In this document: in pieces, positions 8,922-58,830 of the stretch
Layout of the letters: each line of letters opens with the position of its first letter
Numbering within the stretch: the first letter of the stretch is position 1
From: Candidatus Daviesbacteria bacterium
GTDB lineage: Bacteria; Patescibacteriota; Microgenomatia; Daviesbacterales; UBA10151
Direction: 5' to 3'
Length of the DNA stretch: 64,000 nucleotides
NCBI GenBank assembly: GCA_016176335.1
Contig: JACOXI010000003.1
Coordinates: forward strand, 6,920 to 70,919
Made by a program: the position numbers and the translations under genes
Notes under the pieces: generated by a model
Databases searched by the model: none
What the model saw: only the letters and a program-made list of their open reading frames with translations
What the model was told of the DNA's origin: nothing

Positions 8922-9830
8922 TCACTTTTCCCTTTCCACCATATATTGCACCATTTCCGAAAATAACTTTCTCATTTTGGCATCAGAAGTAATCTTTGGT
9001 ATTACTCTTTTTGCTCTAAAAGCATATTTTAACGCTTTGGCCTCTGCCTTGTCCACTGATTCTACTTCCCCATCCAAAATATCATCTCTAATCTGAAAAG
9101 CAATCCCTGCATTCTCCCCGAATTCTTTTATCCCGCGAAGCCTTGGCGAAGTGGGACCTGCTCCTGCCAGAATTGCTCCGAGTTTAAGAGGGCCTGAAAT
9201 AGTATATCTGGCTGTTTTAAGTTTAGCTGTAAGCTTCGGGTCAGCATGGGCAACATCAAGCATTTGTCCTATGGCAGTATCCAGCATTGTTTGGGAAAAA
9301 AATCTTAAGGCCTGGTTTTTTAATTTATCTTCAAAGTTGCTTTCAGTAATAATTTTTATTGCCAGAAAAAAGCCTGCATCTGCCAAAGTGATGGCCTGCT
9401 CCACTCCTACGCGCTTATACAAGGAGGGCTGACCACGTCTTTTGGGACTTTGATCAATTATGTCGTCATGGGCCAAAATGGCAGCATGAAATATCTCATA
9501 AGCTGCAGCAATTTTAATAATAGAGCTTTCAGCTGTCAGTATCGCTTCGCCCGCCTTTGGCGTGGCTTCGCTGTCAGCTTTCAGACTTTTTTTGTCTTTG
9601 TCTGATTGCTGATAGCTGATAGCTGATGACTCTTTTGCAATCTCATATCCCAACACCACCAAAGTTCCCCTGATTCTCTTGCCTCCCTTGCAGGCTTTGA
9701 TGAATTTGTCAACCAAAGGCAATAGACTTCCGGAAGTCTTGCCAACCCCATTCCTCCATTCTTTTAACAATCTCTTTAACTCTTTATCAATGTGTTCAAC
9801 TGTTTTTTGACTAAATATCTTAAAATCCAT
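8922..9830 (-). CDS. Polyprenyl (geranylgeranyl/farnesyl) diphosphate synthase; carries an in-frame repeat insertion
   Basis: The first Asp-rich motif is 'AHDDIIDQSPKRRG'. A ~95-bp repeat-derived insert encodes 'SYQQSDKDKKSLKADSEATPKAGEA'. Confidence 0.85.
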   Translation of the reverse strand: MDFKIFSQKTVEHIDKELKRLLKEWRNGVGKTSGSLLPLVDKFIKACKGGKRIRGTLVVLGYEIAKESSAISYQQSDKDKKSLKADSEATPKAGEAILTAESSIIKIAAAYEIFHAAILAHDDIIDQSPKRRGQPSLYKRVGVEQAITLADAGFFLAIKIITESNFEDKLKNQALRFFSQTMLDTAIGQMLDVAHADPKLTAKLKTARYTISGPLKLGAILAGAGPTSPRLRGIKEFGENAGIAFQIRDDILDGEVESVDKAEAKALKYAFRAKRVIPKITSDAKMRKLFSEMVQYMVEREK

Positions 9831-22184: not shown

Positions 22185-22807
22185 TATTGCTCCACGGTCT
22201 TTTCAGGACCCTGGTTTAGATGAGTATCTATAAACTTTTCTATCCTAGAAGCGTCAAACTGATCAAATTTATCAATATAAGTCCAGGCTGTTAAAGCAAT
22301 TCTTACATCCATATTTGGTCTGGGAATAACAATCAATTTCTTTTTGCCCTTTTTCTCATATACTGAAATTAACTGATCTACCAATTTATGGCAATCAGCG
22401 GATCTAAAAGCAGCAGATAAGGTGGCAGAAGGACTGGACTCTGAAGCTGATGACGTGGCTTCCTCCTCTATCCCATGAGCATAAACTGTTCCCTGTAACC
22501 TGTACCCTGTACCCTGTTTCTCGCAGTTATACGACATAATCACATATCCATGTTCCAAAGAGTGAATCAAATTTCCATCTTCTTTGGGGGCCTCATATAT
22601 CCCGCTTCTTACCCAATCTGCATAATGAGAACCTGATGTAGGTGGATTGGAATTATAATCTACTTTTTCTGAAGCTGGCACATGTTTTCTGCCTAAATCC
22701 GCTACTTTAATACCTGGTAAAGGTTTTGATGAAGCTATAAACAACCAAACCAAGAACCCTCCAAAAGCTAAAATTGCTACAGTGATTAAAATATATTTAT
22801 TATCCAT
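22184..22807 (-). CDS. DUF3105-domain protein, membrane-anchored
   Basis: 'HSLEHGYVIMSY' is the motif. It contains a coding 'gtaccctg' tandem repeat at about 22484-22512. Confidence 0.5.
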   Translation of the reverse strand: MDNKYILITVAILAFGGFLVWLFIASSKPLPGIKVADLGRKHVPASEKVDYNSNPPTSGSHYADWVRSGIYEAPKEDGNLIHSLEHGYVIMSYNCEKQGTGYRLQGTVYAHGIEEEATSSASESSPSATLSAAFRSADCHKLVDQLISVYEKKGKKKLIVIPRPNMDVRIALTAWTYIDKFDQFDASRIEKFIDTHLNQGPEKTVEQ

Positions 22808-26610: not shown

Positions 26611-26759
26611 AAGTAAAGATAGCGAAGTCACAAGCAGTCAAAAAATGTTGTGCAGTTGAGCATACCACTTTATTCATGACCGATTCCATTCCATGGCGCG
26701 AAACGAACACAAGCGAGCGACCTGGTCGCGCGAGCGCTTTTTTGCGCTGTGACGAGCTA
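26611..26759 (+). repeat. ~145-bp dispersed repeat element, copy 2 (fills the PRTase/IMPase intergenic region)
   Basis: It aligns end-to-end with copies at 13234..13383 and 57806..57960. Its 'tgacgagctag' end supplies the PRTase stop codon. Confidence 0.8.
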
Positions 26760-27474: not shown

Positions 27475-28845
27475 CTAATCGAACAACCCCAATTGTGGGG
27501 CTTGATCTTCCTTCTTTTCTTCGGCTCCGTCCTCTCTCTCGTTCCATATCTTCACCACCCCATATACTCCATCATAGCCCGGATCAATCACCAAATCTGC
27601 CTGTCGCACTTTTCCCACTCCTTCTGCAATCTTGGGGCCTGATATTTTGGCTATTTCATCTAAAGATGTTTTGGTCAAAACCTTTATCTCTCCTCCCAGA
27701 TTAGTCACTAACTTTTTATACTCTAAAATCACCTTTTGGGTTGTTGGAGCAGTATGAAAACTTTCAGCAATAATTTGTATTAAAGGCACCAGCATTCTAT
27801 ATCCCGGCCTAGTTGGAAAAGTTTTGCTTTTTATTACTCCTCCTTCATTGTCCATTGTCAATTGTCCATTGTTTCGCGAAGCGAGAACTTCCACCCTCTC
27901 CATTACCCCCACAGTCAAACCTCTACCGCATTTAGGGCAGATCGTACCTTTGGTCTTGGTCTCTTCCGGAGTATACTTTATATTACAATTTCTATGCCCT
28001 GTGTAATGATACTTTCCTTCTTCAGGATAAAATTCTATAGTTCCTGCAATTTTTTGCTCTTTTATTGTCATAAATAACCCTGAATAACCCTCACTTATCT
28101 CCCCATCAAATACTGTTGCTTCTCTGCCTAAATTTGGTAAGGAGTGGGCATCTGAAAAAGAGATAATTGATCTGTTGTCAAGCTCTTTTATCCTCCAGTT
28201 CATGGCCGGGTCAGAACTTAATCCTGTTTCTATTCCATAAATATACTGTGTTAGATCCTCAAAACATTCTTTCAGAGAATCATAGCCTGACTCGGAACCA
28301 AAAATTCCAAACCAAGGAGTCCAAGCATGAGCCGGAATAAAAAGAGCTTTTTCCGATGCCTGCAAGGCCAAAGACAGTAAGTCTTTTGAAGGTATTCCCA
28401 CAATAGGCCTGCCATCAGAACCTAAAGTTGCTCTTCTTGATAAAAGCTCCTTTTGAAATCTCTCCGCGGAAACAAAATCAGGCATAAAAACCAGATTATG
28501 TACTCTTCTTCCCCTACCTTTCTGGGAATACATTGAAGCAATTTCCACAGTTAAAACAAATCTTACCCCCCGCCTTTGGCGAGGCTCGCTCGCCTCGTGG
28601 CGAAGCAACGGGCCTTCGGCAGCTTCACCTTTTCCGCTTTCCCCTTTCATACTTAAAAATCCAGACCCATCCTCTGTCAAATCTTTTTTAAGCTCCGCAA
28701 ACCAAAGTGGGTGCAAAAAATCCCCTGTACCCAAAACATCAATGCCTTTATACTTTGCCCATTCAACCAAATTTGGAACATTTAATTGGGGGGAGCAGGC
28801 CCGGGAGTATTTGGAGTGAATATGCAAATCAGCCACATATGCCAT
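27475..28845 (-). CDS. PHP-domain nuclease, endonuclease Q (EndoQ)-like; carries two in-frame repeat inserts
   Basis: The N-terminus has the PHP motif 'VADLHIHSKYSRA'. A Zn-finger 'CPKCGRG' follows. This architecture matches archaeal EndoQ. The inserts are 'KGESGKGEAAEGPLLRHEASEPRQRRG' and 'ASRNNGQLTMDNEGG'. Confidence 0.55.
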   Translation of the reverse strand: MAYVADLHIHSKYSRACSPQLNVPNLVEWAKYKGIDVLGTGDFLHPLWFAELKKDLTEDGSGFLSMKGESGKGEAAEGPLLRHEASEPRQRRGVRFVLTVEIASMYSQKGRGRRVHNLVFMPDFVSAERFQKELLSRRATLGSDGRPIVGIPSKDLLSLALQASEKALFIPAHAWTPWFGIFGSESGYDSLKECFEDLTQYIYGIETGLSSDPAMNWRIKELDNRSIISFSDAHSLPNLGREATVFDGEISEGYSGLFMTIKEQKIAGTIEFYPEEGKYHYTGHRNCNIKYTPEETKTKGTICPKCGRGLTVGVMERVEVLASRNNGQLTMDNEGGVIKSKTFPTRPGYRMLVPLIQIIAESFHTAPTTQKVILEYKKLVTNLGGEIKVLTKTSLDEIAKISGPKIAEGVGKVRQADLVIDPGYDGVYGVVKIWNEREDGAEEKKEDQAPQLGLFD

Positions 28846-29383: not shown

Positions 29384-29424
29384 ATAACCGTTATAATTTT
29401 TATAATTATTATAACTTTTATATT

Positions 29425-31158
29425 CTACTTTCTAAACTGCAGTTTGTACATTTCCATCAGCTCTTTCAGGGTGGTGGCATCTTCGGCCTTCTTGTCTGCT
29501 TCCCTAAATTTGACCAATCTGGGAAAACGCAGGGCCAGACCGGCCGTATGAAGCGGGCTTTTAGTGATCTCATCTGCCAGAACCTCAATCACAATCTTTG
29601 GTTCCACCCACACACTGGGAGTAATCAATGACCTTACTCTGGCTGGTTTACTTTTAACCTTCAACTTCTCACCTTTAACTTTTATCTCTCTCCACTCTTC
29701 ATCTGTCAACCCTGTCCCAATTTTGGAAACTGTTACAAACTCATCTTTGTCCTGATCATAAACTCCCACGAGGAGCGCTCCTGCTCCAAAAGCAGATCTT
29801 TTACCTTTACCAAAAATATATCCTAAAATCACACAATCTATGGTATCTTTTAACTCTCCGTCAGAGTGTCTTTTTAACTTGACCCAGTTAAAATTCCTGG
29901 CCCCTGCCTCATACTTGGAAGTAGGCCTTTTGACAATTAACCCTTCCAAACCCTTAGTCAGTGCGTCATCAAAAAGCTCCTGTATCCTTTCCACTGAATC
30001 TGTGATCTCTCCTGGCTGCGGAATTAAAACTTCGTGTCCCTTAATTCTTGATTCTAACTGCTTGATTCTTACTTTAAGAGGCAAATCCATTAAAGATTGG
30101 TCATCCAAATACATCACATCAAATACAAATGCCTTAAGCGGTAATTTTACAGCCATCTCCTCTATTCCGTACTTACGACGCCTTTTGGTGGTTTCCTGAA
30201 AAGGTAAAAACTCTTCAGACTGCGGATTAAAAGCCAAAGCTTCTGAATCTAAAATTGCAGTTTTTGCCGATACCTGAGATAAAACTCCTTTAATAATATC
30301 CGGAAACATAGGAGTTGTTTCTTCTAAATTTCTGGAAAAAAGTCTGACCTTGCTACCGTCTTTATGAATTTGTACCCTGAACCCATCGAATTTTTGTTGG
30401 ACATGGGCTTTCCCTCCATATTTTTCCAAAATGGTTTTGGCATCAGGTAATCTTTCTGCAAGTTGTGATCTAATTGGCCTTCCCACAGTTACATCCAAAC
30501 CTTGAACTCCCCGAAGTCCCTGACTCCACAAAACCTCCCCAATCAAACCTAAATCAGACACTTTATTATATGCACCTTCCAAAAGCTTTCTTTTACTTTT
30601 ATCACCCAATTTAGACTTGGCAAAAGCATCCATAATAGTGGGATCACCAATTCCTAACCTTGAGGTTCCCAAAGGGATTCGTACCAGGTGTTTGGCAGAA
30701 ACTCCATCCACTTTATTCAAAAGACTAGAAAGAGCTGTAACCTTCTTTTCAACAGCCCCTTCCCCTGTGGTTTTGGCAATTTCTGTTAAAGTTTTAAAGA
30801 CTTCTGCAACTGACAGAGATCCTTCGACTCTCCCTCGACTAGCTCGGGATCGCTCAGGATGGCTCGCAAATTTGCTCGCCACTATCCCCAAATCCCCTAA
30901 CCTCCCATACTCTTTCAGTACTTGCTCACGTTCTACCCCATAAGCCCGGGCCATTGCTTGAGCAACTAATTTTTCGCTCATCCCAATCTCAATTGGTTCA
31001 TAAAAAGGGGCCACCCGTCCTTGCAGTAAATAAACAACCTCCGCTATTTCACGAGACTTTACTTCATCAAAAAGCTTGGACATGATATCAATAAGCGTAA
31101 GGCGGGAAGAGGTTGATTCTAAATTTTCAAAATACTGCGCCAGTTTACCAAATGTCAT
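29425..31158 (-). CDS. lig: ATP-dependent DNA ligase (archaeal/eukaryotic LigI-like)
   Basis: 'KFDGFRVQIH' is the KxDG adenylation motif I. The length and OB/ligase domains fit. It carries an in-frame insert 'ASHPERSRASRGRVEGS'. Confidence 0.9.
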   Translation of the reverse strand: MTFGKLAQYFENLESTSSRLTLIDIMSKLFDEVKSREIAEVVYLLQGRVAPFYEPIEIGMSEKLVAQAMARAYGVEREQVLKEYGRLGDLGIVASKFASHPERSRASRGRVEGSLSVAEVFKTLTEIAKTTGEGAVEKKVTALSSLLNKVDGVSAKHLVRIPLGTSRLGIGDPTIMDAFAKSKLGDKSKRKLLEGAYNKVSDLGLIGEVLWSQGLRGVQGLDVTVGRPIRSQLAERLPDAKTILEKYGGKAHVQQKFDGFRVQIHKDGSKVRLFSRNLEETTPMFPDIIKGVLSQVSAKTAILDSEALAFNPQSEEFLPFQETTKRRRKYGIEEMAVKLPLKAFVFDVMYLDDQSLMDLPLKVRIKQLESRIKGHEVLIPQPGEITDSVERIQELFDDALTKGLEGLIVKRPTSKYEAGARNFNWVKLKRHSDGELKDTIDCVILGYIFGKGKRSAFGAGALLVGVYDQDKDEFVTVSKIGTGLTDEEWREIKVKGEKLKVKSKPARVRSLITPSVWVEPKIVIEVLADEITKSPLHTAGLALRFPRLVKFREADKKAEDATTLKELMEMYKLQFRK

Positions 31159-31180: not shown

Positions 31181-31708
31181 ATGATCTTGACAAGCAGAAT
31201 TGCTCTTGTAAAATTACCCTCTATGCTTTATCCTGAGGGAGAGATGGAACAGACACCAAAACAACCTCCCACAGCTGAGGGGCCTAAACTTCCTCAAACT
31301 GAAGAAGAGCTGAATCAAATACTTAATACTGCCCGTAGAGCAGGTGCCATAGCGGCTATTAACTCCATACACGAGGAGATAGCACAAACACTTAGCACTA
31401 ATACAGGATATATGGAACTAATTCAATTGGGGTTAGCTAGGGCTGCTGCAACTGGAGGTTTTACTCGGCAAAACTTTAGACCGATACTTCAGTATCTTGA
31501 GGAAATCTTGAATGCTGGAAAAAAAGAAGTAACAATCCTCTTAAAATATAAACAAGCGGCAGTAGAGGGGAGAATCAATTTTGCTGAAATTGGTAGTGAT
31601 CCACAAAGTAGATTACAGGTTTTGGATATTCATCCCCAGGTTCAACCATCGTCAACAACTCAAGATGTTTCACCAGCGAATCCTAGCTCTCCTTTAACAC
31701 ATAAATAG
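31181..31708 (+). CDS. Hypothetical protein
   Basis: No motifs are recognised. Its 3' end overlaps the first 46-bp direct repeat. Confidence 0.3.
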   Translation: MILTSRIALVKLPSMLYPEGEMEQTPKQPPTAEGPKLPQTEEELNQILNTARRAGAIAAINSIHEEIAQTLSTNTGYMELIQLGLARAAATGGFTRQNFRPILQYLEEILNAGKKEVTILLKYKQAAVEGRINFAEIGSDPQSRLQVLDIHPQVQPSSTTQDVSPANPSSPLTHK

Positions 31709-31738
31709 CTTTTTTGGTGCCGCCGGACTTTTTAACCA
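31693..31738 (+). repeat. 46-bp direct repeat, left copy, flanking the BrnTA cassette
   Basis: It is 45/46 identical to 32331..32376, which encodes the Fic C-terminus. Confidence 0.8.
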
Positions 31739-32326: not shown

Positions 32327-33403
32327 TTACTTTAACACATAAATCGCTTTTTTGGTGCCGCCGGACTTTTTAACCAAACCCTTTTGACGCAAAAATTTAA
32401 GTTCCCGCAGCACTGTATCATCAGAATGATCCGGGAAAATTTTCCTAAAATCCTTATTGGACATTCCCTTGTGCCTGTGGATATATTCCATAATCATCAT
32501 CTGCCTCTCATTTAAGGCCACCTGCTCCCCCAGCTTATCTTTAATCCTGGCATCAGTGGAAATTCTTTGAACCTTTTCCTTAACTCTGTTTAACTCTATT
32601 GCCACACCCTGGGTAAAATACTCCAGCCAGGGAGTTAAATCCCTCTCATGTGTATCTAGTACAAGCTGGTTTGATACAGCTTGTAATGTTAAGTAATAGT
32701 CCATAGGGTTTTCATCAAAATACTCTTCAAATGAGAAAAATTTTCTAATGTCGTAATTATCCAAAAACATCACCAGTGTGGCAACTGCTCTTGCCACTCT
32801 GCCGTTTCCATCAACAAAAGGGTGAATCCTGGCAATTTCATAATGAATAATTCCTGCTTTAATGACCGGGTGGGTACTTTTTCCCTCATCAGAGTTGATC
32901 CAATTAACCACATCCTCAATTTGATATGGCACCTCAACTGCCGGAGGAGGCGTGTAAGATACTTGTCCGGTTTTGGTATTGCGGATTACTACCTGACGCA
33001 GCCTAAACTTACCGCATGACTCCGGAGGCAAGATTTTGTCTGTTGTCAGCTTGTGAATTTCCAAAATTGTTTCAAGTGTAAAATTATATGCACCGGAAGT
33101 GCCGATTTGGGCTTGCACCGCATCAATAAATTTTAAGACATTTCTGTAATTTATTATCTCCCAAACATCTCTATCCCGGGCAATTACTTCTTGTCCGTCT
33201 AAAACATCCCTAACTTCTTCCTCTGACAGCGGATTTCCTTCAAGATGAGTTCCGTGGTGAACTGTCCGCTCTATGGCCTCTTTTCTAAATTTTGCCTCCC
33301 AGGCAGGTATCAGCGGAGCATTCATAATAACTTCTCTCGCAGCCTCAACAATACCTATGTCTTTGAGGATTTTATTGGTAATTGTATACTTGGGAATAAA
33401 CAT
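32327..33403 (-). CDS. fic: Fic/DOC family protein with C-terminal wHTH
   Basis: 'HPFVDGNGRVARAVATL' is the Fic motif HPFx[DE]GNGR. Confidence 0.85.
   Translation of the reverse strand: MFIPKYTITNKILKDIGIVEAAREVIMNAPLIPAWEAKFRKEAIERTVHHGTHLEGNPLSEEEVRDVLDGQEVIARDRDVWEIINYRNVLKFIDAVQAQIGTSGAYNFTLETILEIHKLTTDKILPPESCGKFRLRQVVIRNTKTGQVSYTPPPAVEVPYQIEDVVNWINSDEGKSTHPVIKAGIIHYEIARIHPFVDGNGRVARAVATLVMFLDNYDIRKFFSFEEYFDENPMDYYLTLQAVSNQLVLDTHERDLTPWLEYFTQGVAIELNRVKEKVQRISTDARIKDKLGEQVALNERQMMIMEYIHRHKGMSNKDFRKIFPDHSDDTVLRELKFLRQKGLVKKSGGTKKAIYVLK
32331..32376 (+). repeat. 46-bp direct repeat, right copy (= 3' end of fic coding sequence)
   Basis: It encodes '...VKKSGGTKKAIYVLK*' of Fic on the minus strand. 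Confidence 0.8.
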
Positions 33404-33485
33404 GATTATAGCTATCAGTCTTCAGCTATCAGCTTTCAGACTGTACCTAAAAATGTCTGACGACTGACGACTGAAAGCCGACGAC
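33404..33485 (+). repeat. Palindromic 'CAGCTATCAG...GTCTGACGACTGACGACTGA' element (copy A)
   Basis: It matches copies at 42343..42422 and 56706..56785. Confidence 0.7.
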
Positions 33486-33521
33486 TACTTCAATTTTCGC
33501 ATATTTCCCGCAAAATTCCAA

Positions 33522-36500
33522 CTAAGGAATGACATATTCATCCCAACTTTTGATCTGTAAATCTGCTATTTTTTTGGAAGACAAACTTGATACTAATAAT
33601 TCTGCAGCTTGAAGATTGGTGATAAGCGGAATTCCCAAATCAATACAATGCCTTCTTATCACAAATCCATCCGTTTCTCCTTTGGAAGATCCTCCCACGG
33701 AGATATTGATGGCAAGATCAATATGACCTGCTTTCAGTAAGTCCAAAACCGACGGATGTTTTTTCTCTGAAATTTTGTAAACTCTTATACTACTTATTCT
33801 ATGCTGTTTTAAAAACTGATGTGTGTGTTCTGTGGCATAAATTTTAAATCCTAAACCGAAGAGCAGTTTGGCAGATTCCAGAAAATCCAGCTTATTTTTC
33901 TCTCCCCCAAGTCCCAAAAATACACTTTTCTTTGGCATTTTAAAGCCGGTTGCCAGCAGTGCTTTAAGATAGCCTTCCTCTAAGTCATCACCAAAACAGG
34001 CCACCTCACCGGTTGAGGACATCTCTACTCTTAACCTGGGATCTGCTCCTTTTATTCTGTTAAAAGAAAATTGAGGAGCCTTAACTGCTACATAATCCAA
34101 ATCTATAGTTTTAAAATCTCCCTGAATGTCCTCTCCAAGCATGACTTTTGTTGCCATCTCCACCAAGTTGTAACCGGTAACTTTGGAGACAAACGGGAAG
34201 GACCTCGAGGCTCTTAAATTAAGCTCGATCACTTTAATCTCATTATCTTTGGCTATAAATTGAATGTTGAACGGACCACAAATCTTAAGTTCTCTTAGAA
34301 TCTTTTTTGTAGCCTCTTTGATCTGTCTGACAGTTTCAAGGTAGAGTTTTTGCGGAGGCAAAACCAGCGTTGCATCACCGGAGTGAACCCCGGCATTTTC
34401 AACATGCTCTGATATGGCATAAATTAAAAGATTCCCGTTTACTCCTACTCCGTCAATTTCAATCTCTTTGGCGCCCTCCACAAATTTGGAGATAACAACA
34501 GGATGCTCACTTAAAATATCCGCTGCCTGTTTTAGATATTTTTTAAGCTCAGAAGAAGAGTAAGCAACATTCATGGCAGAGCCTGACAAAACATATGAGG
34601 GTCTGATCAAAACAGGGTAGCCAATTTTTCTTGCAAACTCTAGAGCATCACCCAAACTTTTAAGACTCATCCAGGCAGGTTGTTCAATGTTTAACTTATC
34701 CAAAATTTTGGAGAATTTATGCCTATCTTCTGCTCTGTCTATAGAAATAGGTGAGGTGCCGATAATTTTGTAGCCTGCTTTGTAACATTTTAAAGCTAGG
34801 TTGTTTGGAACTTGTCCACCAAAGCCCAAAACTAAACTGCCTTTTTCAATATCATAAATATCGGACACTCTCTCGAAAGTTAATTCTTCAAAGTATAATT
34901 TATCGGCCAAATCATAATCTGTGGAAACAGTTTCCGGGTTACAATTTATGATGATTGTTTCCAAACCTCTCTGCCTTAAGGTTTGTGCAGCGGTAACGCA
35001 GCACCAATCAAACTCCACTGACGAACCAATACTGTATGGTCCGGAACCTAAAACAATCGCTTGGTCCTTGAGTAGCTTAGGTGACTTAAGTGACTTAATA
35101 TTTGCCTCTGACTCTTCACCATGATAGGTCAAATATAAATAATTGGTCTTTGCCGGAAATTCTGCTGCCAAAGTATCTATGTGCTTGACCTTTGGGATAA
35201 TGCCATGTTTTTTTCTAAATTTCCTGACCTGTTCTTCTGTTGTGTTAAAAGCTTTTGCAATCACTCTATCTGAAAAACCCAGCTTCTTTGCTTTTGCAAT
35301 CGTCTGATTGCTCGCCTCGCTGAAGCTCTGGCGAAGCGGGCTGAAAGCTGAAGGCTGAAGGCTATCTTCAAACTCCGCCATCTCTTTAATTTGATGCAAA
35401 AACCAGGGATCAATGCCTGTTTCCTGATAAATTTTCTCGACACCCTCTCCTTTTGAAAACTCTTTGGCAATTGAGAAAAGTCTTTGTGATGTGGGAAGGA
35501 GTGTGCTACTATCAACTCCGTTTGATAAGCCGTCTTGCCCTATCTCCAGCATTCTAATAGCTTTTTGCAAGGCCTCCGGAAAAGACCTGCCTATTGCCAT
35601 GACCTCCCCCACACTTTTCATCTCCGATCCGATAGCCTCATACGCCCCCACAAATTTTTGTAAATCCCATCTGGGAATTTTAACCACAATATAATCCAAA
35701 GCAGGCTCAAAAAAAGCAGAAGTTGATAGGGTGATCCTGTTTTTTAAGTTGGGTAAGTTGTAACCCAAAGCTATTTTGGCAGCGATATATGCTAAAGGGT
35801 AACCAGTTGCTTTTGAGGCTAAAGCCGATGAGCGGGATAGCCTGGCATTAACTTCAATTACCCGGTAATCATTATTTCGGGGATTTAGGGCAAATTGAAT
35901 ATTACACTCCCCCAAGATCCCCAAATGCTCAATAACCTGCAAAGACAGTCTTCTTAAGAAGTGGTACTGATAATTGTTTAAGGTTTGTGATGGTGCAACA
36001 ACTATACTTTCACCGGTGTGAACCCCCATTGGATCCAAGTTCTCCATATTACAAACAGTAATCTTGTTTCCATTGTTATCTCGGACAACCTCATATTCAA
36101 TCTCTTTCCAGTGTTTTAAATACTCTTCAACAGTAATTTGGGGGACATGTTTTAAGGTGATTGACACCATTTTTACTAAATCTTCCTTATTACTCACCAC
36201 CCCTGATCCCAAACCTCCCAAGGAAAAACCTGATCTGACAAGAAGGGGGAACCCCAAATTTTCAGCAATTTCTTCTGCTTCTTTGACGGTTTTTGCAAAT
36301 CCACCTTTTGGAACTTTAACAGCAATTTTTGAAAGTGCTTTTGCAAACAATTCCCTATCTTCGGTTACTTCAATACTTCTAATCGGTGTTCCTAAAACTT
36401 TTACACCGTATTTTTTAAATATATCTTTTTTATCTAAAGCAAGGCCGCAATTTAAAGCAGTCTGTCCCCCGAATGAAAGGAAAATTCCATCAGGTTTTTC

Positions 36501-36725: not shown

Positions 36726-37781
36726 TTACTTAAGACACTTAATAAATTCATCAAATAAATAACCACCGTCAAATGGACCCGGGTTTGCCTCCGGGTGAAA
36801 TTGAACGGCCATAAATGGCTTTGTTTGATGTTTAATTCCCTCATTTGTCCCATCATTGAGATTGATAAACCATTCACTCCAATCCCGACCTAAACTTTTC
36901 ATATCCACTGCAAAACCATGATTTTGAGCGGTTTGTATAGCAATTTTCCTAGTTTGATCTAGTACAGGCTGATTTTGACCCCTGTGACCATATTTTAACT
37001 TATAGGTGTTTCCGCCGGCTGCCAAAGATAAGATCTGGCTACCCAAACAGATACCAAAGATGGGAATGTTCTTTTTGAGGATTTTTCTGACATTTCCAAC
37101 AGTTTCTTTTGCCTGTTTTGGATCCCCGGGCCCATTTGAAATAAAAACTCCATCGAATTCTATTCCGGAGGTGATTGGATTAAAATCCCAGGGAACTTTT
37201 GTCACCTTAACTCCCCTTTTAACCAAGCTTCTGACAATATTTTCCTTAACCCCGCAATCAATCAGCACAATATTCTTTCTGCCGTCTCCATAAACTTCCA
37301 CTTTATCGCAACTGACGTATGGAAGCATGTTCTCTGAATTCGGATCATAGATGCTTAATTCTTTATTCTTGCTGCTTGATTCTAATTCTATTCTCCCCAA
37401 CATCACCCCGTGCTCTCTTAATTTTGCAGTTAAAGCTCTGGTATCAATCCCCTGCAAGGCCGGAATTTTCTCCTGCTTGAGCCACTCCCCCAAAGTTTTT
37501 TTCGACTCAAAATGAGAAGGATTTTCTATATAATTTTGCACAATCAATCCTTTAACCTGAATTTTTTTTGATTCCCAAAATTGCCTTTTTGGTACTCCGT
37601 AATTACCCTGCAGCGGATAAGTTAAACTTAAAATCTGTCCAAAATATGAAGGATCTGTCAAAGATTCCGGGTATCCTACCATACCGGTATTAAAAACCAC
37701 CTCTCCTGAGGTGGTAACCTCTGATCCAAAACTTTGCCCTAAAAAAACTGTCCCATCGGACAGAGCCAGTCTTCCCTGCAT
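36726..37781 (-). CDS. carA: Carbamoyl-phosphate synthase small subunit (glutamine amidotransferase)
   Basis: It has a CPSase small N-domain and a GATase with a Cys-His ('GICLGSQIL', 'HPE'). Confidence 0.9.
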   Translation of the reverse strand: MQGRLALSDGTVFLGQSFGSEVTTSGEVVFNTGMVGYPESLTDPSYFGQILSLTYPLQGNYGVPKRQFWESKKIQVKGLIVQNYIENPSHFESKKTLGEWLKQEKIPALQGIDTRALTAKLREHGVMLGRIELESSSKNKELSIYDPNSENMLPYVSCDKVEVYGDGRKNIVLIDCGVKENIVRSLVKRGVKVTKVPWDFNPITSGIEFDGVFISNGPGDPKQAKETVGNVRKILKKNIPIFGICLGSQILSLAAGGNTYKLKYGHRGQNQPVLDQTRKIAIQTAQNHGFAVDMKSLGRDWSEWFINLNDGTNEGIKHQTKPFMAVQFHPEANPGPFDGGYLFDEFIKCLK

Positions 37782-42288: not shown

Positions 42289-42346
42289 TAAAAAAGCCCT
42301 TGCAAGTTCCCAAAGATTAACTTTAGAAACTTACAAGGGCCTTATT
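42289..42346 (-). terminator. Terminator/attenuator-like hairpin immediately upstream of argH RBS (minus strand)
   Basis: On the minus strand 'aaggcccuuguaaguu' pairs with 'aacuugcaagggcuu' and is followed by 'uuuuuuaa'. It lies between the leader region and the argH SD. Confidence 0.45.
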
Positions 42347-42422
42347 TCAGCTTTCAGACTTCAGCTATCAGCTTTCAGACTTTTGTAATTGTCTGATGAC
42401 TGACGCCTGACGACTGATGACT
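42343..42422 (+). repeat. Palindromic CAGCTATCAG/GACTGA element (copy B) in the argH leader
   Basis: The sequence is 'cagctttcagacttcagctatcagctttcagactt...gtctgatgactgacgcctgacgactgatgact'. Confidence 0.7.
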
Positions 42423-42457
42423 AATCAAGACGGTGCCACCTTGCTTAAATTTTGCTA

Positions 42458-45488: not shown

Positions 45489-46385
45489 TTATTCTACACT
45501 CTTTTGACACTTTGGGCAAAAGTATGTGCCGCGGTTTCCAAGTTGTATCTTTCTGATATTTGTTTTGCATACCTTACATTTGTGTCTGTCTCTGCCATAA
45601 ACGTATGCATAGTCTAAAAAATAGCCTTTATGGCCTTCTGCATCCACAAAATGAGCCTTGGTTGATCCACCGTGCTTTATCCCATCATTTAATGACTGCA
45701 CGATACCATGGTGTAGTTTTTTAATTTGCTCATCAGACAGTTGGGAAACTTTAGTTCTCGGGTCAATTCCAGCATCAAAACAGCCCTCATTAGCATAGAT
45801 ATTGCCTACTCCGGAAACTACACTCTGATCCATAATTGCCACCTTAACAGGCATGCTTTGGTGTTTTAGAAGATTATTTTTTAAAACTGCCCAGGTAAAA
45901 TCCTTTGCCAACGGCTCTGGCCCCAAACTATTTAAGGATTTGTCAATTGTCAATTGTCCATTGTCAATTACTCTTACCCACCCAAACCTCCTTTGGTCAT
46001 TAAAATATAAATGTGAACCATCAGAAAAGCTAAAGATAACTCTAGTATGGTTATTCGGTAATGGTCCAACCATATCTTCAGTGGGATGACCACCAATAAA
46101 TCTTCCCCCTTTACCCTTTCCGCTTTCCCCTTTCCATACCAATTGACCAGTCATCTTCAGGTGAAAAAGTAATGATATCCGATAATCGATATCCGATATA
46201 CCTCCTAAATCTATCCCTAGATATTTAGCTTTTCTCCAAACATTGAACACTTTTTTACCCTGAACTAAATTTGGATTTCCAATGAAAGATTTAGAAGAAA
46301 GTATTTGGATTTTGATAATTTTTAATCCAATTATCCTTTTTTGTAATCCATTTTTAATGGTTTCTACTTCTGGCAACTCCGGCAT
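45489..46385 (-). CDS. fpg: Formamidopyrimidine-DNA glycosylase; carries two or three in-frame repeat inserts
   Basis: 'MPELPEVETI' is the N-terminal catalytic Pro2/Glu3. The C-terminus has a CxxC...CxxC zinc finger. The inserts are 'VIDNGQLTIDKSLN', 'WKGESGKGKGGRFIGG' and the tandem 'GISDIDYRIS'. Confidence 0.85.
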   Translation of the reverse strand: MPELPEVETIKNGLQKRIIGLKIIKIQILSSKSFIGNPNLVQGKKVFNVWRKAKYLGIDLGGISDIDYRISLLFHLKMTGQLVWKGESGKGKGGRFIGGHPTEDMVGPLPNNHTRVIFSFSDGSHLYFNDQRRFGWVRVIDNGQLTIDKSLNSLGPEPLAKDFTWAVLKNNLLKHQSMPVKVAIMDQSVVSGVGNIYANEGCFDAGIDPRTKVSQLSDEQIKKLHHGIVQSLNDGIKHGGSTKAHFVDAEGHKGYFLDYAYVYGRDRHKCKVCKTNIRKIQLGNRGTYFCPKCQKSVE

Positions 46386-48827: not shown

Positions 48828-49847
48828 TCAGGAGAGTTTGCCTTGGCGGGCAAGAGAGACTTTTTTTGTAACTTCCAGGAAAGCTTTTTGGGCAGCAGGA
48901 ACATTTTTCTCTTTCCCAGCTCGCCTCGCTCCGCGGGCGGAGCGGGCCCAAATTTCCAAAGCCTCGCCTTGTAAGGCTCTGGCAAAAGAGAAAGATAATT
49001 GCCATGGCCCGCCTATGTTATTTATTGCCTGCAGATTATCTGTTGCCATATCAGCAGACTGACCTCCGGATAAAAATACCACTCCCGGAAGCTCTTTTGG
49101 CACTGATTCCAAAAGCGCATCAACTGTTGCCTTTGCCACCTCATCTGCTGTTGCCTGTTTGGGGTTGTCCTCACCGGCTGTGGCCATATTGGTTTTCAAC
49201 AGCAATCCTTCCAAGGCTACTTTATGAACATTAATCCTTTCAAAAACAGCCTTCAGAGTTTGAGCTGTAACTTGTGCGCACTTTTCCAAAGTGTGAGAAC
49301 CGCCTCTTATTACTTCCGGCTCAATAATTGGTACCAGTCCTGCATTTTGAGTGATGGCTGCATAACGGGCTAAAACCTCTGCATTTGCCTCCAAACAAGT
49401 CTGTGTTGGGATTTCCTCCCCTATGGTTATCACGGCTCTCCATTTGGCAAACTTGGCACCCATTTGGGCATATTCTTCCAACCTTCCTCGCAATCCATCC
49501 AATCCCTCGGTAATTTTTTCTGCCGGAAAATTAGCAAAATCTACCACTCCTTTATCCACTTTTATTCCAGGGATAATTCCTTTATTTTCCAGATATTTTG
49601 GCACAGATACTCCCTCAATCTCCTGTCTGATTGTTTCATCATAGAGGATTACTCCTGATAGAAATTGTTCCACCCCGGGAGTAGTAAAAAGCATGCTTCT
49701 GTAAGCTAAATTGGTTTGGGGGGTTGAGGTTAAGCCAATCTTATCAAACCTTTTTTGGATGGTTTTGGATGACTCATCAGCTGCCAGAATACCTTTGGTT
49801 GGATTAAGTAAAGCAGAAACTGTTTGTTTTAATTGGTTAATATCCAT
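48828..49847 (-). CDS. fba: Fructose-bisphosphate aldolase, class I; C-terminal in-frame GC-rich insert
   Basis: 'GILAADESSKTIQKRFDKIGL' is the class I FBA N-terminus. The insert is 'ARSARGARRAGKEKN'. Confidence 0.8.
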   Translation of the reverse strand: MDINQLKQTVSALLNPTKGILAADESSKTIQKRFDKIGLTSTPQTNLAYRSMLFTTPGVEQFLSGVILYDETIRQEIEGVSVPKYLENKGIIPGIKVDKGVVDFANFPAEKITEGLDGLRGRLEEYAQMGAKFAKWRAVITIGEEIPTQTCLEANAEVLARYAAITQNAGLVPIIEPEVIRGGSHTLEKCAQVTAQTLKAVFERINVHKVALEGLLLKTNMATAGEDNPKQATADEVAKATVDALLESVPKELPGVVFLSGGQSADMATDNLQAINNIGGPWQLSFSFARALQGEALEIWARSARGARRAGKEKNVPAAQKAFLEVTKKVSLARQGKLS

Positions 49848-52236: not shown

Positions 52237-53466
52237 TTATATCAAATTTGATATATTAGTCAAGTGGAGGATTTTCTTTTTAAATCTCTCTTTAGAAAAA
52301 TTTTGGGCATTTTTTCGCAAAGTTTCTGGATCAAACTGGCTTGGATCAAATTTTTGTAGAGCATCTACTAAAGCATCCACAGTTACCATCCCTGGCCCAC
52401 CATATAAAATACCAGTTGCCACTCGTCCTGAGCTCTTCGAGTCTGAGCCTGAGGGTTCATCCCTCAGAGTCGAATGACCTGTCGAAGGATCAATAACTGT
52501 TTCCAAAAAACCACCCGAAGCAGGAGCAATCACCGGAGTACCGGCAGCTTGAGCCTCAATTGAGGTGATGCCAAAATCCTCATCCTCTGCTGCCACAATT
52601 AGAGCCTTGGCATTTTGCAACAGCTTAACTCTTTCTTCATCACTCACCCATCCTAAGAAGGTGGTAGTTGGTAGGCCTTCAGCTCTGAGGCTCAGGCTCG
52701 AAGAGTTGTAGGTTGTAGCAAGCTTTTTAAGATTTTCCATCTCCGGGCCACTGCCTGCCACTTTTAATGGTAATCGCAATCTTCCACATGCTTCCACTAC
52801 CACATCTACTCCTTTCCCTCTTACTAATCTGCTTAATACTAAAAAGTAATCTTTTTCCCCTTTATACTTTATACTTGATACTTGATACTCTTTCAGATTC
52901 ACTGGCGGATAAATCACCACTGAGTCTCTTCTGTAGAACTTCTTGATCCTTGCCTGGACATTTTTGGAATTGGCCACCAAAATATCAGGGCGTTGCGAAA
53001 CTTCATAATCATAAATCCTCATAAAATGGTTAATTATCTCTCCTCCGATCCTAGTCCACCAATGCTTTTTATAGTTAAAAGAAGTCACATAGCCATATAA
53101 AAATCTGGGTGGGGTATGGATATAGCTGATATGTAAAGTTTCAGGTTTGGTAATGACCGCTTTGGCAAGATGGGTGGCTGATGAGGAAGAGATAACCACC
53201 TCATACTGTGATAAATCAAAGCTTTCAAACATCAACGGCCCAAAAATTCTAAAAGGAGAAAGAAGCTGATCAGCAAACGGGAATTTTTGAAACCAAGAAG
53301 GTCTAATATCCCAATCTTTGAATCTTTTCCCATTCTCCCCCATGGCAGAAAGATTCACATAAGCAGTATAGACAGGAGCATTGGGAAAAATTTCATGCAA
53401 GGCTTCCAGTACTCTCTCAGCACCCCCATATTCCTTCAAATAATCATGAGCTAAAGCAACTTTCAC
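52237..53466 (-). CDS. Glycosyltransferase family 4; carries two inverted copies of a GC-rich in-frame insert
   Basis: It has a GT4 fold ('EDFGITSIEAQAAGTPVIA'). The inserts 'DEPSGSDSKSSGRVATG' and 'SSSLSLRAEGLP' come from 'ctcttcgag.ctgagcctgag' motifs at 52425-52495 and 52672-52722. Confidence 0.8.
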   Translation of the reverse strand: MKVALAHDYLKEYGGAERVLEALHEIFPNAPVYTAYVNLSAMGENGKRFKDWDIRPSWFQKFPFADQLLSPFRIFGPLMFESFDLSQYEVVISSSSATHLAKAVITKPETLHISYIHTPPRFLYGYVTSFNYKKHWWTRIGGEIINHFMRIYDYEVSQRPDILVANSKNVQARIKKFYRRDSVVIYPPVNLKEYQVSSIKYKGEKDYFLVLSRLVRGKGVDVVVEACGRLRLPLKVAGSGPEMENLKKLATTYNSSSLSLRAEGLPTTTFLGWVSDEERVKLLQNAKALIVAAEDEDFGITSIEAQAAGTPVIAPASGGFLETVIDPSTGHSTLRDEPSGSDSKSSGRVATGILYGGPGMVTVDALVDALQKFDPSQFDPETLRKNAQNFSKERFKKKILHLTNISNLI

Positions 53467-56532: not shown

Positions 56533-58830
56533 TCATAACACTAATAACTTCATCTCTCCCCAATTGGGGCCTACTTTTAGATCCACCACTACTGGTACAG
56601 ATAATTTTAGGGCATTTTCCATTTTATCTTTGACCATTTGGGCAATTTCTTTAACGCTCTTGGGGTCACACTCAAACAACAATTCATCATGAACCTGGAG
56701 GATGAGTCGGCAGCTATCAGATCGTTCGCTGCGCTCACTGTCAGCTTTCAGACTGTCTGACGACTGATGACTGATGACTGATAACTCCTTATCAATTTCC
56801 ACCATGGCCTTTTTGATCATATCTGCTGCTGTTCCTTGAACCGGATGATTGATGGCTGCTCTCTCACCAGCTGCTTTGATGGCGTGATTTGAGGCTGTAA
56901 GTTCAGGGATATATCTTTTCCTGCCCCAAAGAGTTTCAACATACCCCCTTTCATATCCAAAGGCTAAAGTCTTTTGCATCCACTGGGAAACTTTGGGGAA
57001 TTGTGCAAAATATTCCGCAATATATGTTCGCGCCACCTCATATTCCACCCCTAACTGACGGGACAAGGCATGGGGGCCCTGACCATATAACGTTGCAAAG
57101 TTCATGGTTTTACCTACATTTCTTTGCTGTTTTGTAATTTTATCAATTGGCATTTTGAAAATTTTACTGGCAGTTGCTACATGAATGTCTAATCCTTCTC
57201 TGAAGGACTTTCTTAATCCCGGATCATCTGCCAAATGAGCCATAATCCTAAGCTCGATTTGTGAATAATCAGCTGCCAAAAGTACCTTGCCTTTGGGAGC
57301 AATGAAGGCGCGTCTTATTTCTCCACCCTCCTCACCTTTAATTGGGATATTTTGCATGTTTGGGTTTTGAGAAGACAGCCTGCCTGTGGCAGCTCCTTCC
57401 ACATTAAAAGTGGAGTGAATCCTGCCATCTAATCCTACAGATTTAGGCAAGGCATCTATGTAGGTTGATACCAGTTTGAAAAGCTGGCGATACTCTAAAA
57501 GTAATGGCACTACAGGATGAGCTGCTACCAACTCATGAAGGGTGGCCTCATCTGTTGATCTACCAGTTTTGGTCTTTCTCACCACTGGTAATTTAAGTTC
57601 GTCAAACAGAATCTGCGACAGTTGCTTTGGGCTGTTCGGATTAAACTCATGTCCTATTTTTGAGTAAATTTCTTTTTCTAATTTAATTAATCTACCTTTT
57701 AAGGCTTTCCCAAGTCTCTCTAAAAACCTTAAATCTATTAGTACACCAGTTTTGGACATCCTTTCTAAAACTGGCTGTACAGCTAAATCCAAATCCGTGG
57801 TATTTATGGAGTTAGCGAAGTCAGAGGTAGCCAAAAAATGTGGCGCAGTTGAGCGCACATCCTTATCCATGCTTGAATTACCTACTTGGCGCGAAACAAG
57901 TCCCAAGCGAGCGACCTGGTCGCGCGAGCGGTTTTTTGCATCCTGACGAGCTACTCCCACACCTGGAATCCTACCAATCAAACTTTTAAACTCCAATTCT
58001 TCAAACAATTTAACTACTTTTTCTTTATCAAAATCATGAACCTCACACTTCTTCAAATCTAACTTAATTGGGGCTTTGCCATCTAAGGTGGCTAGTTTTT
58101 TACTCATTACAGCATCTTCTGCACCTTCTGCCAACAGCTTTTGCATTCTTTGCGGTAAAGTTTTTAAATTCTTGGGACGGTAAATTTCTTCAATCGTGCC
58201 AAACTGGTGTATTAATTTTGTCGCAGATACATCCCCTATTCCAGAAACTCCCGGGATATTATCCGATGCATCTCCTGCCAGCGCCTTATAATCAACCAAA
58301 AGTTTGGGTGCAAATCCATATCTTGCCACAAACTCTTCCTCCCCATACAGCCCCACATCCGCAAGGGTTTTTTTAGGCATAAAAACTTTCACTTTTCCAT
58401 TAATCAGCTGCATGATATCCCGATCACCTGTCACAATAATAATTTCTAATTTCAAATTTTTAATTTTTAATGCTTGGCTTGCCAGTGTGGCAATCAGATC
58501 ATCTGCCTCATAACCTGATAAGCTAAATTGCGGCATGTTAAATGCCCTGATGACCTCATGCACTCTGTGATATTGATTACCCAATGCCTGATCCAGCTCA
58601 CGTCTTGTGGCTTTATATTGAGTATAAGCTTGATGTCTAAATGTCGGCCCCCTTTCATCCCAGGCAACGGCCAGAAATGTAGGTTTAAGCTCATTTAAAA
58701 CCTTCAGCATCATTGAGGAAAATCCATATACAGCATTGACCAGTTCTCCTTGGGAAGTAGTAAAAGGAGGAGTAGCATGATAAGCCCGATGCAGCAAAGC
58801 ATTACCATCAACTAAAACCAGTCGTTTCAT
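56533..58830 (-). CDS. polA: DNA polymerase I (5'-3' exonuclease + polymerase domains; no evident 3'-5' exonuclease domain); carries two in-frame repeat inserts
   Basis: The N-terminal 5' nuclease is 'MKRLVLVDGNALLHRAYHA'. The Pol A motifs 'DYSQIELRI' and 'QVHDELLFE' are present. Inserts lie at 57806-57960 (the 145-bp element) and 56706-56785. Confidence 0.9.
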   Translation of the reverse strand: MKRLVLVDGNALLHRAYHATPPFTTSQGELVNAVYGFSSMMLKVLNELKPTFLAVAWDERGPTFRHQAYTQYKATRRELDQALGNQYHRVHEVIRAFNMPQFSLSGYEADDLIATLASQALKIKNLKLEIIIVTGDRDIMQLINGKVKVFMPKKTLADVGLYGEEEFVARYGFAPKLLVDYKALAGDASDNIPGVSGIGDVSATKLIHQFGTIEEIYRPKNLKTLPQRMQKLLAEGAEDAVMSKKLATLDGKAPIKLDLKKCEVHDFDKEKVVKLFEELEFKSLIGRIPGVGVARQDAKNRSRDQVARLGLVSRQVGNSSMDKDVRSTAPHFLATSDFANSINTTDLDLAVQPVLERMSKTGVLIDLRFLERLGKALKGRLIKLEKEIYSKIGHEFNPNSPKQLSQILFDELKLPVVRKTKTGRSTDEATLHELVAAHPVVPLLLEYRQLFKLVSTYIDALPKSVGLDGRIHSTFNVEGAATGRLSSQNPNMQNIPIKGEEGGEIRRAFIAPKGKVLLAADYSQIELRIMAHLADDPGLRKSFREGLDIHVATASKIFKMPIDKITKQQRNVGKTMNFATLYGQGPHALSRQLGVEYEVARTYIAEYFAQFPKVSQWMQKTLAFGYERGYVETLWGRKRYIPELTASNHAIKAAGERAAINHPVQGTAADMIKKAMVEIDKELSVISHQSSDSLKADSERSERSDSCRLILQVHDELLFECDPKSVKEIAQMVKDKMENALKLSVPVVVDLKVGPNWGEMKLLVL
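56706..56785 (+). repeat. Palindromic CAGCTATCAG/GACTGA element (copy C) in-frame inside polA
   Basis: The sequence is 'cagctatcag...ctgtcagctttcagactgtctgacgactgatgactgatgactga'. It encodes 'SVISHQSSDSLKADSERSERSDS'. Confidence 0.7.
57806..57960 (+). repeat. ~145-bp dispersed repeat element, copy 3, in-frame inside polA (antisense to the gene)
   Basis: It aligns over its full length with the 13234..13383 and 26611..26759 copies. It is translated as 'ARQDAKNRSRDQVARLGLVSRQVGNSSMDKDVRSTAPHFLATSDFANSINT'. Confidence 0.8.

Follow-up and report, generated by a model that had tools for sequence, protein, structure and literature searches.

Two short strings, CCGCTTTCCCCTTTC and TTGTCAATTGTCCATTG, occur in frame both in fpg and in an EndoQ-like nuclease gene of an uncultured bacterium of the candidate phyla radiation (CPR) near Candidatus Daviesbacteria. 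Analysis of the 64-kb stretch of DNA that holds both genes (the window) shows that these strings are pieces of degenerate tandem arrays with a period of 7 nucleotides (nt), whose coding-strand units are GGGAAAG and TTGACAA/TGGACAA. We consider it probable, though well short of certain, that the shared strings are fragments of heptanucleotide tandem-repeat cassettes, a large lineage population that sits in spacers and permissive protein loops and has been copied from site to site.

Cassettes within fpg and the EndoQ-like gene

A sequence-only reading had placed both strings in both genes, and this proved accurate. CCGCTTTCCCCTTTC matches exactly at 46120-46134 (fpg) and 28634-28648 (EndoQ-like), with a two-mismatch neighbour at 46106; at up to 2 mismatches the window contains 3 matches against 0.21 expected. 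Exact matches of TTGTCAATTGTCCATTG lie at 45947-45963 (fpg) and 27855-27871 (EndoQ-like), and at up to 3 mismatches there are 5 overlapping matches against 0.42 expected, so that both counts are far over chance. The proposed translations and in-frame placement were reproduced from the open reading frames (ORFs): WKGESGKGKGG and VIDNGQLTIDK in Fpg, MKGESGKGEAAEG and NNGQLTMDNEG in the EndoQ-like protein. Both gene names hold as well. Fpg matches solved MutM structures (E 1.6e-45), and a protein identical to the window Fpg (P0001) is already named Fpg, Candidatus Daviesbacteria-like. The EndoQ-like protein matches EndoQ of P. furiosus (PfuEndoQ 5zb8/7k30, E 6e-43), and Pfam PF27218 was found in its orthologues.

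The window is matched at 100% identity by three independent assemblies (L001-L003), made from separate sequencing runs, over 12.4, 2.5 and 1.35 kb, six arrays included. The array sequence in both genes is therefore real and not an assembly artefact. Tandem Repeats Finder (TRF) reported the arrays at 45940-45969 (unit TTGTCAA), 46102-46135 (unit CTTTCCC) and 27846-27872 (unit CATTGTC). The genes and their cassettes are as follows.

45489..46385, minus strand: fpg (formamidopyrimidine-DNA glycosylase, 298 aa), from its ORF and matches to solved MutM/Fpg; three heptamer arrays
46170..46199, minus strand: Fpg site A array (TRF), unit GATATCG/GATTATC, encoding ISDIDYRIS, residues 63-71
46101..46136, minus strand: Fpg site B cassette, TGGAAAG GGGAAAG CGGAAAG GGTAAAG GGGGAAG A, encoding WKGESGKGKGGR, residues 84-95; contains CCGCTTTCCCCTTTC
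45938..45969, minus strand: Fpg site C cassette, TTGACAA TGGACAA TTGACAA TTGACAA, encoding IDNGQLTIDK, residues 139-149; contains TTGTCAATTGTCCATTG
27475..28845, minus strand: EndoQ-like nuclease gene (456 aa), from its ORF and the PfuEndoQ match; two heptamer sites
28624..28650, minus strand: EndoQ site 1 cassette, 5' part, ATGAAAG GGGAAAG CGGAAAA GGTGAA, encoding MKGESGKGE
28570..28623, minus strand: 54-nt G+C-rich insertion (AAEGPLLRHEASEPRQRR) inside the EndoQ site 1 cassette, carrying the motif GCTTCGCC-A-CGAGGCGAG
28561-28569, minus strand: EndoQ site 1 cassette, 3' part, GGGGTAAGA
27844..27872, minus strand: EndoQ site 2 cassette (TRF), AATGGAC AATTGAC AATGGAC AAT, encoding NNGQLTMDN

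Placement of these segments in the proteins relies on alignments to solved structures; an AlphaFold2 model of Fpg built from the orthologue alignment had a mean pLDDT of 46.8 and was left unused. Site B of Fpg occupies the loop after the LRMEGRY strand of MutM, which has 9 residues in MutM and about 28 in the window protein. Site A falls at a one-residue turn between two MutM beta-strands, and site C is the interdomain linker, which aligns to MutM without a gap and hence is not a length insertion. Relative to PfuEndoQ, residues 58-91 of the EndoQ-like protein hold about 25 extra residues, and the site 2 peptide NNGQLTMDNEGG falls in a 12-residue gap. We infer that the in-frame coding arrays are translated, because the frame is kept, no stop codon occurs, and the TGG variant (TGGACAA) of Fpg site C, as read from the sequence, sits precisely in the unit whose TGA would be in frame.

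The 54-nt insertion appears as a clean 18-codon gap in two related loci (L086 and L090) that have identical flanks. It shares sub-motifs of 9-17 nt with other G+C-rich patches, and its GCTTCGCC-A-CGAGGCGAG motif has 3 matches against 0 expected. A hairpin element was considered for this insert and rejected, as it folds no better than shuffles (z = 0.06) and the 176 kb of related DNA hold no second copy at full length.

The heptamer-array population

Arrays of this period are common in the window. Of the 68 rows reported by TRF, 27 have period 7, and a strict scan for at least three copies found 13 period-7 arrays where shuffles gave 0.6; periods 8-12 yielded none. The strict density amounts to 0.20/kb for the window, 0.25/kb for four related contigs and 0.022/kb for 1.27 Mb of unrelated genomes; this is a roughly tenfold excess over controls that comprise 80 loci, with the distant Fpg loci taken from one contig scan using over-general Fpg peptide patterns. 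The arrays are short (about 3-5 copies of the unit) and use a limited repertoire of unit families: GGGAAAG, TTGACAA/TGGACAA, TCAGNNN/NNNCTGA, ACAGGTT, AAAGTTC, AGAATCA and others. Nineteen of the 27 TRF arrays lie wholly within long ORFs, in frame, so their location is not mainly intergenic. Besides Fpg and the EndoQ-like protein, the hosts are polyprenyl synthase, HMG-CoA reductase, GHMP kinase, DUF3105, Pth, CarA, CarB, a RecF-like protein, a GT4 glycosyltransferase and PolA. Representative arrays outside fpg and the EndoQ-like gene are listed here.

9570..9635, minus strand: TCAG/CTGA composite in the polyprenyl synthase gene (SSAISYQQSD...SLKADSE); hairpin z = -3.69
22486..22517, minus strand: ACAGGGT/ACAGGTT array (TRF) in the DUF3105 gene (KQGTGYRLQGTV); unit family as in Fpg site B/C of the related locus L084
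24848..24877, minus strand: GGGAAAG-type array (TRF) in pth (LGKRVKGQGES); families D7/D17
33405..33490: intergenic inverted pair of TCAG/CTGA heptamer arrays (D6, D9, D13); hairpin z = -4.95; abuts the start codon at 33403
37354..37389, minus strand: carA array (TRF; IELESSSKNKELS)
42344..42426: second intergenic TCAG/CTGA inverted composite; hairpin z = -4.81
52860..52889, minus strand: GT4 glycosyltransferase array (TRF; EYQVSSIKYKG)
56737..56790, minus strand: TCAG/CTGA inverted heptamer composite in polA (LSVISHQSSDSLKADSE); families D6/D9

Arrays in spacers are often inverted pairs of the form [TCAGNNN]n-spacer-[NNNCTGA]n that make long imperfect hairpins, some of which reach a start codon. 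The polA and polyprenyl synthase genes carry miniature in-frame versions of this composite. In polA it corresponds to a 19-residue gap relative to Taq polymerase and a 14-aa gap relative to the L106 orthologue, and in the polyprenyl synthase gene it is broken by a G+C-rich patch at 9542-9573.

Copy number does not vary between strains: the six arrays are identical in L001-L003, and differences appear only among species-level relatives. A phase-variation or contingency-locus reading was rejected because the arrays are invariant between these near-identical strains; they also sit in essential genes.

Two further observations concern the reach of the arrays. Among the control loci, heptamer arrays occur in L020 (Patescibacteria), L083 (Wildermuthbacteria), L029 (Omnitrophota), L035 and L038 (cyanobacterium), and L020 shares the AAGTTCA unit with Daviesbacteria relatives. 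A few of these outside lineages, an Omnitrophota and a cyanobacterium among them, show enrichment as well. Since some control lineages also carry such arrays, the phenomenon may extend beyond Daviesbacteria. The conserved Pth segment LLTTYYKLP (24708-24727; L085 and L090 orthologues) is encoded in three lineages by 7-nt-periodic DNA (ACTACNN units), which suggests that arrays are able to overwrite or mimic native coding sequence.

Turnover, probable copying and rival explanations

Orthologues of both proteins (34 for Fpg and 30 for the EndoQ-like protein, 64-85% identity) are hypervariable at the cassette sites. At Fpg site B, 13 of the 34 carry a KGESGKG-type segment, about 12-14 a homogeneous short form (I-Y-E/D-D/N-G-K-R-F) and the rest unrelated inserts; its uniformity speaks for the short form as the ancestral one. 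Depending on the lineage, the DNA at site B is GGGAAAG, GTTACAG or nothing, and that at site C is TTGACAA, GACAGGT, AAAGTGC, AAAGTTC or G+C-rich. Some heptamer array is present at site C in most available Daviesbacteria orthologues. In 8 other orthologues site A is a gap of 6-7 codons, with a GATAT(A/C) seed at that point. Most orthologues have nothing at EndoQ site 1 (L086 and L090 carry an uninterrupted cassette), and site 2 is variable in all and deleted in 4 of the 30.

The same replacement of unit families at one protein site is seen in other genes. The pth site holds GGGAAAG in the window and a TGGACAA-type array in L085 (SFDNGQWTFDK). Three families occupy the carA site after GVMLGRIE in three lineages (GGGAAAG-type in L106, TGGACAA-type in L108), and three also occur at the GT4 site (AAAGTTC in L101, a perfect GGGGAAA array in L107). 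The ligase gene likewise has differing families among relatives at one site.

Aligned to solved MutM and PfuEndoQ, the segments lie in gaps or loops, and close orthologues have them, lack them or carry something else instead; conservation across distant taxa was not found. This bears out the earlier view that they are not conserved, structurally required features; the orthologue alignment and loop mapping proposed with it put the cassettes in hypervariable loops, turns and a linker. That they are protein features, for instance DNA-binding loops of repair enzymes, which have been conserved or have been selected convergently, is extremely improbable. KGESGKGKG is indeed basic and glycine-rich and both hosts bind DNA, but the segments are missing from the solved Fpg and EndoQ and from many close orthologues. 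Moreover, the same cassettes occur in Pth, CarA, CarB, GT4, GlpX and a phosphoribosyltransferase (PRTase), and the identity reaches the codon level, beyond that of the peptide.

Carriers of the Fpg cassette are not monophyletic: the distance among carriers is the same as in random sets (permutation p = 0.74), and in 500 of 500 bootstraps the protein closest to the window Fpg has no site B cassette. The Fpg tree is star-like and does not separate many gains from many losses.

Evidence for copying comes from sites that are not homologous. The EndoQ cassette of L086/L090 reads AAAGGGG AAAGCGG AAAGGGT GAAGGGG TAAGATT T and the Fpg cassette of L089 reads AAAGGGG AAAGCGG AAAGGGT GAAGGGG AAAGATT T. 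Over these five units 35 of the 36 nt agree, and all departures from the consensus unit are common to both. The 20-mer GACAATGGACAATTGACAAT is found in the window fpg and in the PRTase of L085, with one mismatch in EndoQ site 2 of the window and as close variants in pth (L085) and carA (L108). A wider census of relatives' genes ruled out that the cassettes are confined to Fpg and EndoQ: in 176 kb of related DNA, GGGAAAG-type cassettes occur in Fpg, EndoQ, Pth, CarA, CarB, GT4 and GlpX, and the GGGAAAG and TTGACAA/TGGACAA families are each present in at least 5-7 host genes.

A closer comparison is offered by the Fpg proteins P0003 (L084) and P0005 (L087), which are 95% identical outside the variable sites and differ by whole cassettes at two sites. 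Site B is empty in L087 and holds an array of +21 nt in L084, whose 18-nt core ACAGGTTACAGGGGACAG equals the site C array of the same gene, 180 nt away. Judged from this match, sites C and B of the L084 gene are a donor-recipient pair. Nucleotide identity across non-homologous sites supports copying, and not convergence at the peptide level, as its apparent source.

Independent slippage at each site, with the same units recurring through the replication machinery or through selection for certain heptamers and without any copying, seems unlikely. Slippage is the standard account of heptamer excess among simple sequence repeats (SSRs; PMC4679880, PMC4692102), and it fits Fpg site A, where array-free orthologues hold the GATAT(A/C) seed and the gain is 18-21 nt. 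It also agrees with the convergent look of the L106 CarA and CarB arrays, in which a C or T interruption recurs at the same unit position. However, it does not account for the five-unit identity of the Fpg and EndoQ cassettes with their common variant pattern, nor for different unit families at one site in close relatives. For site B of L084, the 95%-identical empty allele has no seed, whereas the match to site C spans 18 nt.

In the explanation that we favour, slippage would have a part in a longer process. Replication slippage on local proto-repeats, of which the seed at Fpg site A may be an example, would create the arrays and lengthen them. Template switching or microhomology-mediated ectopic repair would then carry them to other sites, with repeated microhomology for switching in and out supplied by the 7-nt register. 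Selection would then retain copies that are free of stops, change the length by a multiple of three and lie in tolerant loops; because only such copies pass, a few sites would appear as hotspots. The peptides KGESGKG, NGQLTMD and LSVISHQ would be by-products of repeat unit and frame and not selected motifs.

Several points weigh against copying as the full account. No copying event was directly observed, template switching is deduced from end products alone, and the related DNA sampled amounts to about 176 kb only. In a metagenome-wide scan, the low-GC contigs with the exact 21-nt KGESGKG module had it only at site B of Fpg (5 loci), site 1 of EndoQ (1 locus) and in one K/G-rich protein, which suggests that some cassettes are less dispersed than the model implies. 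A motif search had been called for by the sequence-only reading: the CCGCTTTCCCCTTTC and TTGTCAATTGTCCATTG families turned up in many genes, but the exact 21-nt module is nearly confined to two gene sites. From the L106 CarA and CarB interruptions it follows that some common variants can be convergent.

A further point concerns synonymous change at Fpg site B, where seven lineages show near-zero synonymous divergence and flanking codons are near saturation. We compared codons among these seven cassette-bearing lineages (pairwise amino-acid identity 0.71-0.79, 21 pairs, 11-codon cassette). Elsewhere in fpg, identical amino acids use the same codon in about 50% of cases. Inside the cassette the same codon is used in 8/8 to 11/11 cases for 16 of the 21 pairs and in 8/9 or 9/10 for the remaining five (per-pair Fisher p 5e-4 to 5e-2). 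For Gly, the codon is the same in 73/73 pairs inside, against 173/487 elsewhere. In total, one synonymous change stands against about six non-synonymous ones, and the EndoQ cassette follows the same trend of few synonymous changes in three lineages. Neither a simple ancient insertion nor random copying within the genome predicts such frozen sites; they call for selection on the nucleotides themselves or for the recent gain, more than once, of one and the same sequence.

Two further readings draw on this pattern. We see a modest chance that a process in Daviesbacteria repeatedly writes conserved heptamer cassettes into the same permissive sites, in a templated or homing-like manner, or that strong nucleotide-level selection maintains them as embedded signals. 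This is proposed because the Fpg cassette is synonymously near-identical, its carriers are non-monophyletic and 95%-identical alleles differ by whole cassettes.

In the second, the cassettes (if not all of them, then the G-rich KGESGKG one) would function as nucleic-acid elements, either as a tract that controls structure or as a binding site for protein or RNA, and would be kept by selection at the nucleotide level. We regard this as distinctly unlikely. In its favour, synonymous change is nearly absent in the seven Fpg and three EndoQ lineages while non-synonymous change occurs, and intergenic arrays abut start codons, as do the TAACTGA repeats for which a regulatory role was proposed (PMC4679880). 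The conserved C and T interruptions also remove a G-quadruplex of very high predicted stability (0.0 kcal/mol for the real Fpg and EndoQ cassettes against -30.6 kcal/mol for a perfect array). Nonetheless, the GT4 gene of L107 retains a perfect array prone to form a G-quadruplex, many orthologues have no cassette or an unrelated one at the same site, and the cassettes of EndoQ site 2 and Fpg site C diverge freely. One synonymous against about six non-synonymous changes would also fit young neutral sequence.

The sequence-only reading had spoken of mobile mini-insertions. Lineage-specific and copied DNA is what we find as well, but in the form of repeat cassettes without defined ends and not of transposons. 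Taken literally, that reading would imply discrete non-autonomous mobile elements, similar to miniature inverted-repeat transposable elements, Rickettsia palindromic elements (RPEs) or REPINs, with a transposase elsewhere in the genome; we find this quite improbable. In-frame entry into unrelated genes does recall the RPEs (PMC10969869), and the 54-nt G+C-rich piece looks like a clean insertion. Palindromic structure is present in other members of the repeat population, namely the TCAG/CTGA composites (z about -4 to -5) and a dispersed element of about 140 nt described below, both of which occur in spacers and genes. The fpg and EndoQ patches, however, form no predicted fold (0 kcal/mol and z = -1.0 for those of fpg), and no palindrome or terminal inverted repeats were found in them. 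Nor do the fpg and EndoQ patches show a full-length consensus with target-site duplication: their ends are not defined, the number of units varies and native codons are replaced at the junctions. No transposase, RAYT, integrase or reverse transcriptase was found among the ORFs of the 64-kb window, and the 54-nt insert lacks a full-length second copy in the 176 kb. The marks of a diversity-generating retroelement target were not found either: the window encodes no reverse transcriptase, and A positions are mostly invariant in the Fpg cassette.

In this tiny-genome CPR lineage, a sizeable share of the length variation of essential enzymes thus comes from 7-nt repeat cassettes instead of ordinary indels. 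This has a bearing on the origin of new loops and linkers. It also matters for the annotation and alignment of CPR proteins, where cassettes common to unrelated genes and species can produce spurious local similarity and false motifs. With donors and recipients that can be identified, the lineage is a tractable natural system for template switching at microsatellite-like repeats in bacteria, and the frozen synonymous sites could point to a function at the nucleic-acid level within coding regions.

Neighbouring features and known repeat systems

The dispersed element of about 140 nt is found at 13235-13376, at 26621-26760 (intergenic) and at 57814-57954 (inside polA). Its long terminal stem, in which 4 pairs have changed in a compensatory way between the 3 copies, is accompanied by an internal G+C hairpin and a T-run. 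The copy inside polA keeps the reading frame and falls in the linker that connects the 5'-nuclease part of PolA to the polymerase part, where the L106 orthologue is without 29 residues. In PolA itself (56533-58830) the 5'-nuclease is joined directly to the polymerase, without the roughly 140 residues that make up the 3'-5' exonuclease-like domain of Taq and Klenow.

A loose family of G+C-rich mini-inserts, with the pattern GCTTCGC(C)-loop-GAGGCGAG(C), is present at 24691-24705 (pth), 28589-28606 (EndoQ-like) and 35311-35337 (carB), with 3 exact motif matches against 0 expected. Related patches lie at 9542-9573, 48911-48957 and 30820-30865 (ligase). Their peptides include PASRGES, LRHEASE and PLRQSFSEAS; several are indels relative to close orthologues, and several directly adjoin heptamer arrays.

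Next to the EndoQ-like gene, a '23S rRNA-intervening sequence protein' (four-helix-bundle) gene occupies 28850-29383, with a second family copy at 6740-7129. It is taken to be an insertion, because the ligase and EndoQ-like genes that flank it are 4 nt apart in L085. TATAAT-like tandem repeats of 9/18 nt are contained in this gene or flank it (29020-29060 and 29383-29422). Arrays of TATAATNNT with a 9-nt period (families D2/D10) lie at 8492, 17905, 29020 and 29392, in spacers and at gene ends; they resemble -10 boxes and are separate from the heptamers.

Other features can be mentioned briefly. One phosphoesterase has its DHH and DHHA2 domains on separate ORFs that overlap (9857-10468 and 10444-10788); a frameshift, a programmed shift or a pseudogene may lie behind this. 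A 47-nt direct repeat (31692-31738 and 32330-32376, 98% identical) flanks a BrnT/CopG-type toxin-antitoxin pair beside a Fic gene. The first 7 kb (1-7000, and also 7629-7739) encode secreted or pilin-like proteins at a G+C content of 0.43-0.50, against about 0.38, and one of these proteins has a Pro/Thr/Ser-rich repeat with a period of 12-18 nt. The 8-mer TTTGGCAG/CTGCCAAA has 27 copies in the window (for example at 9380, 13539, 35165, 44743 and 57228), of which 26 were counted in 57 kb, against about 1.4 expected from base composition. It is the only frequent 8-mer, is unrelated to the arrays and appears in all frames and both orientations without an extended consensus; a codon-pair effect or a DNA-level signal is possible. 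No known RNA families or tRNAs were found in the whole window.

Comparison with known systems shows partial likeness in each case. DNA uptake sequences are short motifs that lie in frame in variable protein regions, form inverted pairs in spacers and are said to be enriched in genome-maintenance genes. In the window no single 9-12-mer reaches about 1 per kb, and an uptake sequence was rejected since the oligomer census gave no single motif that accounts for the arrays, the over-represented 10-mers being the array modules themselves.

In Nostoc punctiforme, Elhai and co-workers reportedly described in 2008 small dispersed repeats of less than 60 nt that are nested in tandem heptameric repeats. 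The 54-nt G+C-rich piece within the EndoQ cassette is similar to these, as are the G+C-rich patches that adjoin the arrays of carB, pth and the polyprenyl synthase gene. The G+C-rich pieces of the window differ, however, in being a loose family that shares 9-17-nt sub-motifs and lies within coding sequence.

Repeat units of Borgs within ORFs are said to be multiples of three. The window differs by its 7-nt unit, because of which the peptide has a period of 7 aa per 3 units, and by cassettes that are common to several loci. According to the Borg study (PMC9879509), repeat regions arise independently and tandem repeats create disordered protein regions; the arrays are alike in being fast-evolving nucleotide repeats that add flexible peptide segments in frame.

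With RPEs (PMC10969869) the arrays have in common that short repeated DNA is tolerated in frame in surface regions of unrelated essential genes, that families are common to spacers and coding sequence, and that some members (the TCAG/CTGA composites and the 140-nt element) are palindromic. RPEs are about 100-150 bp long, with a family consensus and a conserved encoded peptide, whereas the fpg and EndoQ patches are 27-36 nt, non-palindromic and built of 7-nt units in variable number, and often replace native codons.

The closest likeness is to heptanucleotide SSRs and the short tandemly repeated repetitive sequences (STRRs) of cyanobacteria. Among the long SSRs of many prokaryotes, those with a heptanucleotide unit are the most frequent, and polymerase slippage is the proposed cause (Mrazek et al. 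2007, as summarised in PMC4679880 and PMC4692102). Known heptamers include the cyanobacterial STRRs and the TAACTGA repeats of Beggiatoaceae, Cyanobacteria and Bacteroidetes (PMC4679880), as well as the GGGNATC and GGGGA(T/C)T repeats of Xanthomonas and Nostoc (PMC4692102). In-frame heptamer cassettes of the present kind were not found described for CPR bacteria or Daviesbacteria in the literature searched, whose coverage was incomplete, so this is no proof of novelty. Common to the window and the known heptamers are short tandem 7-nt arrays (2-6 copies), a lineage-specific excess of period 7, arrays near start codons, inverted pairs and the G-quadruplex potential of G-rich units. The known repeats lie mainly in intergenic regions or hypothetical ORFs, usually with one dominant unit per genome. 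The window instead has many families, the majority of its arrays are coding, many of them are placed in frame in conserved housekeeping enzymes at recurrent permissive sites that different families occupy in turn among relatives, and identical multi-unit variant patterns are common to genes and genomes. The likeness is most specific for the TAACTGA repeats, which translate on the reverse strand as LSVISYQ (PMC4679880): the unit family CTGATAA/CTGATGA/CTGACGA of the window gives the same reverse-frame peptide, LSVIS(Y/H)Q, and LSVISYQ matches the polA and polyprenyl synthase peptides.

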